From Candidatus Oxydemutator sp. (GTDB taxonomy: Bacteria; Pseudomonadota; Gammaproteobacteria; Poriferisulfidales; Oxydemutatoraceae): a DNA stretch of 64,000 bases. The stretch spans positions 2,016,001 through 2,080,000 of the forward strand of contig OZ241883.1 of NCBI GenBank assembly GCA_965203445.1, written 5' to 3'. The position numbers and the translations under genes are program-made. Of this stretch, positions 10,728 through 21,314 are shown in pieces (position 1 is the first letter of the stretch; each line of letters opens with the position of its first letter). The notes below the pieces were generated by a model, which was not told the origin of the DNA, did no database searches, and saw nothing but the letters and a program-made list of their open reading frames with translations.

Positions 10728-10803
10728 GTCCCCATCGTCTAGAGGCCTAGGACATCGCCCTTTCACGGCGGCAACAGGGGTTCGAATCCCCTTGGGGACG
10801 CCA
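10728..10803 (+). tRNA. tRNA-Glu (anticodon TTC)
   Basis: GTCCCCATCGTCTAGAGGCCTAGGACATCGCCCTTTCACGGCGGCAACAGGGGTTCGAATCCCCTTGGGGACGCCA; 76 nt, TTC at 10762-10764, GTTCGAATC T-loop, encoded CCA. Confidence 0.98.
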
Positions 10804-19767: not shown

Positions 19768-19783
19768 ATTGGTCTCTTCCATA

Positions 19784-19811
19784 ATTTAACATAATATACA
19801 TTATGCGAAGT
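19784..19811 (-). other. dif: dif site (XerC/XerD chromosome dimer resolution site)
   Basis: Minus strand reads ACTTCGCATAA TGTATA TTATGTTAAAT: XerD arm and spacer identical to E. coli dif (GGTGCGCATAA TGTATA TTATGTTAAAT), XerC arm differs only in its outer bases; lies in an AT-rich intergenic region. Confidence 0.95.
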
Positions 19812-19896
19812 AAGGAGTGTACGAACTTATGGGCTGCGCACTAGGACAAAGAACGCCCTGAGGATACGATCCGGGGCCACGGTCGACCTCGCCCTA

Positions 19897-19924
19897 TTGC
19901 CATGTGTCGAACAATAAATATAAT
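19897..19924 (+). promoter_or_regulatory. Putative strong sigma70 promoter of the Lpp/OprI-like lipoprotein gene
   Basis: TTGCCA (19897-19902), 16-nt spacer, TATAAT (19919-19924); GGAG RBS at 19987-19990. Confidence 0.6.
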
Positions 19925-19998
19925 TCCCGCGTTCGCTCGCTTGGTTTGTTTCTAACCATGCATGATCACAACAATCAAAGAACCCTGGAGTTTTATCT

Positions 19999-20235
19999 AT
20001 GAAGAAGCATTACCTTCTGGCTTCCGTTTGCATGCTGCTTTTGGCGGGTTGCGGCGGCATGACCATGGAACAAATGAAAATGATGGAAGACATGAAGACG
20101 CATATGAATGAAATGCAATTTCAAGTCAACAAGGCTGAAACCGACGCGGCACGCGCCAAGGAAATGGCCCACGAGGCCATGATGAAAGCCACTCATTCGA
20201 AGAAAAGAAAGAGAATGCGCGGGATGATGAAATAA
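19999..20235 (+). CDS. Lpp/OprI-like alanine-zipper outer-membrane lipoprotein, methionine-rich
   Basis: MKK+hydrophobic+LAGC lipobox, 78 aa, 3-4 heptad spacing, basic tail ending in Lys; own promoter, RBS and terminator; convergent with an L,D-transpeptidase. Confidence 0.85.
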   Translation: MKKHYLLASVCMLLLAGCGGMTMEQMKMMEDMKTHMNEMQFQVNKAETDAARAKEMAHEAMMKATHSKKRKRMRGMMK

Positions 20236-20258
20236 TTGTCTCGATTTCTCGTCCACCT

Positions 20259-20286
20259 GAAAGGGGCCGCCAGGCCCCTTTTCTTT
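20259..20286. terminator. Intrinsic (probably bidirectional) terminator
   Basis: GAAAGGGGCC-GCCA-GGCCCCTTTTCTTT hairpin with U-tract between convergent genes. Confidence 0.85.
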
Positions 20287-20318
20287 GGCCCGGCTTCGGT
20301 GCCGACCCTTGCACGCGC

Positions 20319-21314
20319 TCAGAAAACGTAGTCCGCCTTCGGTTGCCTGGCCGCGACCGGCGCGCGCGGCGCCGTCTTGAAGCTGGGCGACGTGCCGCGG
20401 TTCAGCGGAACCGGTATGCCGCGCCCCTGCTTCGCCGTGTCGATCAGCCTTTCCCAGTCTATCGCTATCCCTTGCCCGGCGAGCAGCTCGACGACCTCGT
20501 GTATCGCCGCTCCTAGATAACGATCCATCCATTCCGCCTGCCCGCGCCCGTGCGATTCAAAATACACGACGCCTTCGATCAGCGCGCTTTTGAAGGGCTG
20601 AAACTGTATCGTCACCGGCGTACCGCGCTCTACCTTGCCGAAAAAATGCTCGATGTCGGCGGGACGCATGCGGATGCAACCGTGAGTGGCCTTCATTCCG
20701 ATTGCGTACGGGCGGTTGGTACCGTGAATAAAGTAACCGGCCAAATCGAGTTGCAGCGCGTATTTGCCGAGCGGGTTGTCCGCGCCGGGCGGCACGCTGC
20801 GCGGCAGCGGATCGCCGGCCAGCTCGTGCTCGCGGCGCACGCTCTCTGGCGGATACCAGGTCGGGTTGACGATTTTGTCCGTGACCTCCGTTCGCGCAAC
20901 CGGCGTCTGCCAGTCGCCGCGCCCGATACTGATCGGATAGGTTTCGACGATGCTCCCGCCGCCGTCGACGGCACGCCCGGTCGTGTAATAAATCCGCATT
21001 TCGGCGAGATTCACGTATATGCCGCGATAGGACGGGCGCGGCACGATGAACTGGCTCGGAAGCACCACCTGGGTGCCGTCGCCCGGCACCCAGGTATCGA
21101 TTCCCGGGTTGGCCGCCATCACCTCCTCGTACCCCAGCTCGAATTCCTGCGCCAGGGTCAGGATCGTGTCCTGCGGCTGCACCACGGTCTTTTGCAGAAC
21201 GCCTATTAGTGTATGATTTGAATCGAACTGGTAAGTCGCCGGAAACACGGCCGCGACCGGCGCCAACATCATGCAAACGACCGATGACAACCGCCTGATA
21301 TGGGTGCAAAACAT
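20319..21314 (-). CDS. L,D-transpeptidase (ErfK/YbiS/YcfS/YnhG family) with N-terminal LysM-like domain
   Basis: Signal-like N-terminus, LGYEEVMAANPGID, VNLAEMRIYY, YPISIGR, NPTWYPP, NPLG, IHGTN...THGCIRM catalytic His/Cys; start 21314 or ~21272. Confidence 0.92.
   Translation of the reverse strand: MFCTHIRRLSSVVCMMLAPVAAVFPATYQFDSNHTLIGVLQKTVVQPQDTILTLAQEFELGYEEVMAANPGIDTWVPGDGTQVVLPSQFIVPRPSYRGIYVNLAEMRIYYTTGRAVDGGGSIVETYPISIGRGDWQTPVARTEVTDKIVNPTWYPPESVRREHELAGDPLPRSVPPGADNPLGKYALQLDLAGYFIHGTNRPYAIGMKATHGCIRMRPADIEHFFGKVERGTPVTIQFQPFKSALIEGVVYFESHGRGQAEWMDRYLGAAIHEVVELLAGQGIAIDWERLIDTAKQGRGIPVPLNRGTSPSFKTAPRAPVAARQPKADYVF

Follow-up and report, generated by a model that had tools for sequence, protein, structure and literature searches.

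A methionine-rich Lpp/OprI-type lipoprotein, a probable Braun-type tether, in the family of Candidatus Oxydemutator

We studied a small gene in a 64,000-nucleotide stretch of DNA from Candidatus Oxydemutator sp. (contig OZ241883.1, positions 2,016,001 to 2,080,000 of the forward strand). We call the whole stretch the window, and feature coordinates are positions within it. At 19999-20235 on the plus strand, the window encodes a lipoprotein of 78 amino acids (plus stop) that is unusually rich in methionine, and a gene for an L,D-transpeptidase converges on it from the other strand. The lipoprotein is very probably a divergent member of the Lpp/OprI type and the organism's only outer-membrane lipoprotein of that type. 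With similar confidence, we expect that it would be an outer-membrane trimer whose C-terminal lysine is tied to peptidoglycan by the neighboring enzyme, which would make it this bacterial family's Braun-type tether. The methionine-rich version is common to the family, and only ordinary versions (0–12% methionine) were seen in sister families and in a sample of the class. As to why the methionines are there, we rank a role as an oxidant sink first, by analogy and tentatively.

A divergent branch of the Lpp/OprI type

The open reading frame (ORF) begins with a predicted lipoprotein signal peptide (19999-20052, plus strand) with the lipobox LLAGC at residues 14–18, so that Cys18 is the predicted lipidated first residue of the mature protein. 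Gly17 and Cys18 are invariant across 17 aligned sequences, and Cys18 is invariant across 44. The mature part of 61 amino acids contains 14 methionines (23%), three histidines, one valine, and no leucine or isoleucine (counted twice). It has 13 lysines and arginines and 8 aspartates and glutamates, so 21 of the 61 residues (34%) are charged. Residues 29, 32, 36, 39, 43, 46, 50, 53, 57, 60, and 64 (M, M, M, M, V, A, A, A, A, A, and A) follow an unbroken 3–4 heptad spacing. Three parts can be told apart: an N-terminal methionine-rich segment (residues 21–39; 20059-20115, plus strand) that has 10 methionines and includes the core layers M29, M32, M36, and M39; a zipper of V43 and the six alanines from A46 to A64 (20125-20190, plus strand), which is the part in common with ordinary OprI-like proteins; and a basic, methionine-containing tail (residues 65–78; 20191-20232, plus strand) that ends in MMK, with lysine as the last residue. 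An earlier sequence-only reading of this stretch had reported this composition and a methionine zipper followed by an alanine zipper, and direct reading and a recount gave the same result. A 96%-identical variant on another contig (P0001) has an in-frame, strain-level indel: it lacks the three residues Ala-Thr-His where the coil meets the tail.

The profile for Lpp/OprI alanine-zipper lipoproteins (NF040598) matched residues 8–69 with E = 1.1e-8 and 35.5 bits (cut-off 43), and when the organism's own genome was searched with this profile, the locus was the only plausible member. E. coli-type Lpp (NF011925) gave E = 0.67 and 10.2 bits as compared to a cut-off of 108, so by profile the protein does not belong to that type. 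Judged by language-model features, the Atlas clusters closest to the protein are Alanine_zipper or LPP clusters (PF11839 or PF04728), with scores of 0.93–0.94. Just three relatives came up in a word-seeded search of 5.8 billion proteins. A full HMMER pass over 1.84 billion representatives with a profile of 17 family sequences gave 38 proteins at E ≤ 1e-3: 22 with a methionine content of 10% or more and 16 ordinary low-methionine lipoproteins (1–8%), most of the latter with tails like ...RMFKKSMYK. Because the family profile retrieves ordinary OprI-like lipoproteins, we consider the methionine-rich proteins to be a small branch that has diverged within the OprI-type family, which agrees with the Braun-type assignment that had been made from the sequence alone. 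Of the 40 proteins listed, 36 retain the C-terminal lysine. Columns 50, 53, and 57 are alanine in 33–34 of the 34 methionine-rich sequences and in 8–9 of 10 outgroups, which comes to at least 90% of the 44. A profile search of the sequences of solved structures yielded only matches to signal peptides or generic coiled coils (best E = 0.012) and no Lpp entry.

The protein resembles OprI and the NF040598 family in being a small lipoprotein with alanine at a/d heptad positions and a C-terminal lysine, and it resembles OprI further in its modeled parallel trimer and its YkuD transpeptidase partner. It differs from ordinary OprI members in composition (23% methionine versus 0–12%, and no leucine or isoleucine), in having methionine in place of valine, leucine, isoleucine, or alanine in the first four core layers, and in its methionine- and lysine-rich tail. 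Also, unlike many ordinary relatives, the methionine-rich family has no Cys-Cys pair. In many ordinary gammaproteobacterial OprI-like lipoproteins, this pair is conserved about 15 residues before the C-terminal lysine (P0025, P0027, P0031, and P0032; loci L048/L066, L056, L067, L068, L072-L075, and L080). A preprint on a redox-active LppB from Salmonella contains a hint that such cysteines may matter (10.1101/2025.11.13.688167). As for Braun's lipoprotein (Lpp) of E. coli, the proposed role and architecture are the same (an outer-membrane trimeric coiled coil with a C-terminal lysine), but there is no meaningful sequence match and the composition differs. The C-terminal lysine of E. coli Lpp is described as being joined to peptidoglycan by LdtA, LdtB, and LdtC (PMC10653827).

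We modeled a trimer, as the sequence-only reading had proposed, from three copies of residues 19–78. Each of the three runs gave an interface score (ipSAE) of 0.74, versus 0.02 for the best control; 20 of 30 proteins that were solved as one-chain pairs reach this mark, as does 1 of 23 that were solved as single chains. Between runs, at least 94% of contacts are the same, and the predicted local distance difference test score (pLDDT) is at least 80. The contacts with the lowest error are in register (39-39, 46-46, 50-50, 53-53, 57-57, and 60-60). All 11 heptad residues lie at the interface in every copy, and residues 68–78 lie outside it. At the level of prediction, the model supports a parallel, in-register trimer with methionine at four core layers.

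Methionine content within and beyond the family

At the genome's methionine frequency of about 1.5%, as estimated from a crude set of ORFs, the probability of at least 14 methionines among 61 residues is 2.7e-13. Among ORFs of at least 50 amino acids, the lipoprotein is the most methionine-rich in the genome (19.5%, excluding the initiator, whereas the runner-up, a probably spurious ORF, has 10%), and no further ORF of this size in the 2.38-Mb, single-contig genome is above 10%. A gene set filtered by G+C content at third codon positions (GC3), comprising 1,476 ORFs that cover 74% of the genome, has about 1.6% methionine overall; these figures are rough and indicate orders of magnitude. Predicted exported proteins (n = 210) average just 1.1% methionine or so, and apart from one 24-residue artefact, none has over 5%. 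The secretome as a whole is not biased toward methionine, although the sequence-only reading had raised such a bias as a possible objection.

A homologue is present in 17 of 18 genomes from the same family (f1, six genera). Fourteen of these were found by profile and three, from genus g5, by position: in the g5 genomes, the lipoprotein that the profile missed lies beside the transpeptidase orthologue and combines an ordinary coil of leucine, valine, and alanine with a tail that is rich in methionine, lysine, histidine, and aspartate and ends in MMK. Neither the lipoprotein nor the transpeptidase was seen in the remaining genome, which is 85% complete. The 17 family sequences (loci L009-L022 and the three from g5) contain 8–30% methionine. 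Their tails all have 3–21 methionines, versus 1–4 in ten outgroups. MMK is the ending of 16 of the 17 relatives (the exception, L022, has YHK) and also of two ordinary low-methionine relatives, P0032 and P0035. Within the core, columns 29, 32, 36, and 39 are methionine in 20, 22, 12, and 13 of the 34 methionine-rich sequences, respectively, and outgroups have valine, leucine, isoleucine, or alanine at these columns. The four core methionines are conserved within the window's genus. Genera g4, g5, and g6 have leucine, valine, or alanine at the core positions and are enriched in methionine in the tail only. Going by these alignments, the methionine core is specific to some genera, and the family-wide trait is the methionine- and lysine-rich C-terminal tail. 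The earlier view that the methionine core is the unusual part of this protein is right as far as the outgroups go, and has to be narrowed to some genera within the family.

The tandem DNA repeats that encode methionine-rich stretches differ by genus (for example, 18 bp repeated 4.3 times in L020 and 15 bp repeated 3.4 times in L017), and they are recent duplications of separate origin. The lipoprotein gene is 47% G+C in a window that is 64% G+C, so the gains of methionine run counter to the compositional trend. From the sequences, we read this as a repeated, directional gain of methionine in this bacterial family, with the alanine zipper kept. In the lipoprotein gene, the GC3 of the non-methionine codons is 0.56. 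Within 19768-20235, the spacer upstream of the gene is 45% G+C, and the neighboring transpeptidase gene has a GC3 of 0.78. The difference in G+C content (47% versus 64%) led us to consider horizontal acquisition, which we rejected because synteny extends over six genera and because the amino acid composition itself depresses G+C.

Close relatives are also present in metagenome-assembled genomes named uncultured Candidatus Porisulfidus sp., Candidatus Oxydemutatoraceae bacterium, and Gammaproteobacteria bacterium. We left these named records out of the separate count because they may coincide with genomes that are already in the sample. One report names Porisulfidus among the known symbionts of sponges (PMC12988363), and in the phylogeny of another it is the outgroup to SUP05 (PMC9123188).

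Outside of the family, the sister family f3 of the same order (genomes of about 1 Mb) has a lipoprotein of 60 amino acids with 1–2 methionines in 42 residues. This shortened OprI-like lipoprotein is nearly identical over eight genomes (e.g., L049-L056), and MsrP was found in none of the 17 f3 genomes. In one genome from another sister family, the lipoprotein has 6 methionines among 77 residues. In a sample of 400 genomes from the class, 24 genomes had matches at E ≤ 1e-4, and 22 of these are outside of f1. Of the 21 class-sample loci (L067-L087), seven were dropped (the wrong ORF was picked in six and a different protein was found in one); at the 14 readable loci, the OprI-like lipoprotein has 0–12% methionine, and only one reaches 10%. 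In these samples, relatives outside of the family are not methionine-rich, contrary to the concern in the sequence-only reading that free-living relatives might be equally so. In a literature search that was mostly outside of subscription journals, we found no description of a methionine-rich Lpp/OprI homologue.

The convergent transpeptidase and the case for a tether

The gene at 20319-21314 on the minus strand encodes a YkuD L,D-transpeptidase of 331 amino acids with a signal-peptide-like N terminus, a weak match to LysM, and the motif IHGT...THGCIRM. It matched PF03734 (YkuD) with E = 3.5e-24 and 86.5 bits (cut-off 23.4) over model positions 3–146 of 146, and all of the 19 orthologues retain the catalytic histidine and cysteine motif. 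The enzyme scored 151–167 bits on the LdtE, PRK10190, and PRK10260 models, which is in each case far under the cut-off; LdtE is the best NCBIfam match. The genome encodes four YkuD proteins. The other three are of different types (a short DpaA-like protein, an ElsL-like protein, and a YkuD-Cds6_C protein), so the neighbor is the genome's only enzyme of the ErfK/YbiS/YcfS/YnhG type.

The lipoprotein and the transpeptidase are adjacent and convergent at all 15 of loci L008-L022, which are the window's own locus and those of 14 same-family genomes. The same arrangement holds in 3 of 3 genomes from g5 and in a genome from a sister family (G042). Identity of the enzyme across the paired loci falls to 40%. 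Because the lipoprotein in G042 is an ordinary one, the pairing is older than the enrichment in methionine. The sequence-only reading had described an ErfK-family enzyme with intact histidine and cysteine, paired with the lipoprotein, and both the profile match and the conservation of the pair bear this out. From the conserved pairing and the lack of an alternative ErfK/YbiS/YcfS/YnhG-type enzyme, we infer that the neighbor probably anchors the lipoprotein. In Pseudomonas aeruginosa, OprI is reported to be anchored by the L,D-transpeptidase LdtPae2 (PMC10434034).

Some results count against a tether. The NF040598 score is under the curated cut-off, and neither PF11839 (Alanine_zipper) nor PF04728 (LPP) matched the lipoprotein at E ≤ 1. 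The high score of the modeled trimer may only mirror a likeness to the Lpp trimer, for which there is a solved structure, and the modeling job used three copies and a custom alignment, unlike its calibration. In addition, L,D-transpeptidases that cross-link, anchor, or hydrolyze are described as forming no separate lineages, so that function does not follow phylogeny and is not readable from sequence lineage (PMC10434034). The protein could instead be a free or surface-exposed methionine-rich lipoprotein, with the transpeptidase making only 3-3 cross-links and the adjacency of the two genes reflecting conserved gene order. The best NCBIfam match of the enzyme, sub-threshold as it is, is to a cross-linking enzyme (LdtE), and the class-V aminotransferase and FAA hydrolase neighbors are syntenic in relatives too. 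We find this improbable, given that the C-terminal lysine is kept in nearly all of the listed proteins, that the convergent pairing persists as the enzymes diverge and extends into a sister family, and that the genome has no other enzyme of the suitable type. A Braun-type tether is the reading that we favor.

Upstream of the lipoprotein gene is a putative sigma-70-type promoter, TTGCCA-16-TATAAT (19897-19924, plus strand; 11 of 12 positions match). A promoter scan gave this one site as compared to a mean of 0.8 in shuffled sequence, so the match by itself is weak evidence. The ribosome-binding site GGAG (19985-19988, plus strand) lies 8 nucleotides from the ATG. Between the convergent genes is a GC-rich hairpin (20259-20282) with a U tract (the feature spans 20259-20286), and there is a run of A on the other side. 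The 65-nucleotide stretch folds with -24.7 kcal/mol, and its z score relative to shuffled sequences is only -1.6; a terminator scan chose another, weaker site and did not call this hairpin. Judging from the sequence, it is likely to be a terminator, and it possibly serves both genes. The promoter, ribosome-binding site, and terminator that were noted earlier can all be located, with these reservations about the first and the last. The locus as a whole includes Dus, FAA hydrolase, transpeptidase, and class-V aminotransferase genes. The starts of the transpeptidase (21314, minus strand) and of the divergent aminotransferase (21300, plus strand) overlap by 15 bp (21300-21314). Elsewhere in the window, a tRNA gene (10728-10800) is the only Rfam match at the gathering score. 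In the organism's genome outside of the window (G000:C1:1381631-1389343), a run of small ORFs shares a 12-residue peptide at regular spacing; this pattern marks a translated direct-repeat array, possibly a CRISPR (clustered regularly interspaced short palindromic repeats).

What the methionines may do

In our best explanation, a tether doubles as an oxidant sink. The protein, lipidated at Cys18, would go to the outer membrane; its +2 residue is glycine, which we presume to direct sorting to that membrane. Residues 26–67 or so would form a parallel three-stranded coiled coil, and the convergently encoded transpeptidase would join the epsilon-amino group of the C-terminal lysine to peptidoglycan, as knowledge of the family and the conserved pairing suggest. 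Selection would have repeatedly raised the methionine content of the N-terminal end, the first core layers, and the flexible tail, with the alanine zipper retained. The abundant, wall-anchored protein could then double as a thioether sink that is sacrificed to hypohalous and other oxidants, and the MsrP-MsrQ system of the same genome would reduce methionine sulfoxide back to methionine. A function like that of MrpX or BcrX would thus have been placed onto a structural protein. We put this explanation as a whole, a tether plus a sink recycled by MsrPQ, at somewhat less than an even chance.

The analogy is with MrpX from Azospira suillum and BcrX from Brucella melitensis. MrpX is reported to be an exported hypochlorite sink with 20% methionine and 44% charged residues that is encoded with yedYZ (PMC4436054), and BcrX, the Brucella HOCl-resistance peptide, is described as a MXKDX repeat protein (PMC8315932). 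Like these proteins, the lipoprotein is small and exported, with around 20% methionine and many charged residues, in a genome that encodes MsrPQ. The tails of some relatives repeat units that fit the M-x-K-D-x pattern. MsrP (459.5 bits as compared to a cut-off of 207) and MsrQ (169.1 bits, cut-off 130) are encoded side by side, and MsrA is encoded as well. Unlike MrpX and BcrX, which are described as soluble, probably unfolded proteins encoded in the msrPQ operon under the control of an extracytoplasmic function (ECF) sigma factor, the window's protein is a lipoprotein with a predicted folded coiled coil and a sigma-70-like promoter, and msrPQ is unlinked. The resemblance is compositional, and no sequence model links the proteins.

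Several observations speak against an oxidant sink. MsrP is encoded in 18 of 18 genomes from f1 and also in 16 of 16 genomes from the sister family f2, which does not have methionine-rich lipoproteins, so the presence of MsrP does not discriminate. In genome coordinates, msrPQ (at about 1.3625 Mb) is about 670 kb away from the lipoprotein gene (at 2.036 Mb), so they do not form one operon. The MXKDX and MrpX models in NCBIfam did not match the protein or ten of its relatives, even at E ≤ 10. If the trimer model is right, the core methionines would be buried and would make poor sink residues, and the enrichment in histidine and aspartate in some relatives (6 histidines in L017 and 10 in P0015) fits metal binding at least as well. 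At 16 msrP loci (seven from f2, seven from f1, the window's own genome, and one from another family), there was no methionine-dense ORF with a signal peptide or an MrpX-like composition within 4 kb of msrP; four loci had weak, spurious-looking methionine-dense ORFs. As there is no MrpX-like ORF near msrP, nothing suggests that an MrpX was lost and that the lipoprotein took its place.

A close rival, which we think is unlikely to be the answer but take seriously, is that the same tether buffers periplasmic Cu(I) or Ag(I) with its layers of three methionines and its flanks rich in methionine, histidine, and aspartate. Methionine triads and Met-His motifs are ligands for Cu(I) and Ag(I) in Ctr1, CusF, and SilE, and the protein resembles SilE/PcoE, CusF, the methionine-rich regions of CopA and CueO, and the Ctr1 triads in its methionine clusters, its few histidines, and its i/i+3 and i/i+4 spacings. 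Four consecutive core layers (29, 32, 36, and 39) are methionine in the modeled in-register interface and are conserved within the genus, M-x-x-H and H-x-x-M spacings occur in the window's protein (M32/H35 and H58/M61), a five-residue Met-Met-His-Asp-Asp unit is repeated in L017, and P0015 has 10 histidines. However, the methionine core is not family-wide (g4, g5, and g6 keep leucine, valine, or alanine) and the histidine positions are not conserved. We found no homology to CusF, CopC, or SilE/PcoE, no cop, cus, sil, or pco cluster, and no copper-resistance gene beside the lipoprotein. With the exception of CopL (E = 0.47), no metal-binding Pfam or NCBIfam model matched the protein at E ≤ 1, and the NCBIfam metal-binding models did not match its relatives. 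Neither CusF nor CopC was found in the genome, which could give a further periplasmic binder of Cu(I) a use, but the genome already encodes one multicopper oxidase; together, these do not decide between copper and oxidants.

It is also rather doubtful, though well worth weighing, that the methionines of the tether have no chemical role and are a tolerated or structural hydrophobic residue, spread by lineage-specific drift through repeat slippage. (In a structural variant of this idea, methionine would give a more flexible core, or the tail would be fitted to its cognate transpeptidase or to peptidoglycan.) Methionine replaces valine, leucine, isoleucine, or alanine at core positions with the heptad intact; methionine-rich stretches arise by tandem duplication; methionine content varies from 8% to 30% within the family; and drift is strong in small symbiont genomes. 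Furthermore, because the endings of ordinary OprI-like proteins are SMMK, GMMK, or SMYK, some methionine was already present in the ancestral tail. But neutral change would not readily account for enrichment in three parts of the protein, by different repeat units in different genera, and always toward methionine, which opposes the GC-rich mutational background. Also, no second protein in the genome is enriched in this way, and we did not see the enrichment outside of the family in the samples searched. Storage of sulfur or sparing of branched-chain amino acids, which we also considered, is unsupported, and one 61-residue protein is too small for this unless it is extremely abundant.

Returning to a chemical role for the tether, a bolder and quite unlikely version is that it acts as a redox- or metal-responsive sensor and shield in sponge symbionts. 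The methionine core layers and the exposed methionine- and lysine-rich tails would react with hypohalous oxidants from the host or would bind Cu(I), and the buried layers, once oxidized or loaded with metal, would make the N-terminal half of the rod reversibly looser or stiffer. The spacing of outer membrane and cell wall, and their mechanical coupling, would then respond to chemical attack by the host, and MsrPQ would return the system to its starting state.

Tethers of the Lpp/OprI type rank with the most abundant proteins of the envelope, and their role is regarded as purely mechanical. In this case, an entire family of symbionts appears to have rebuilt such a tether with 8–30% methionine and, in the window's genus, with a methionine zipper and no leucine or isoleucine. 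This provides a natural test case for how well a trimeric coiled coil tolerates an all-methionine core. If the oxidant (or copper) reading is true, then the family has turned a structural protein into a high-capacity thioether reservoir that is fixed in the periplasm, and a Braun tether has been joined to an MrpX-type sacrificial sink (or a copper buffer), which would point to a chemical pressure that is specific to life within sponges.

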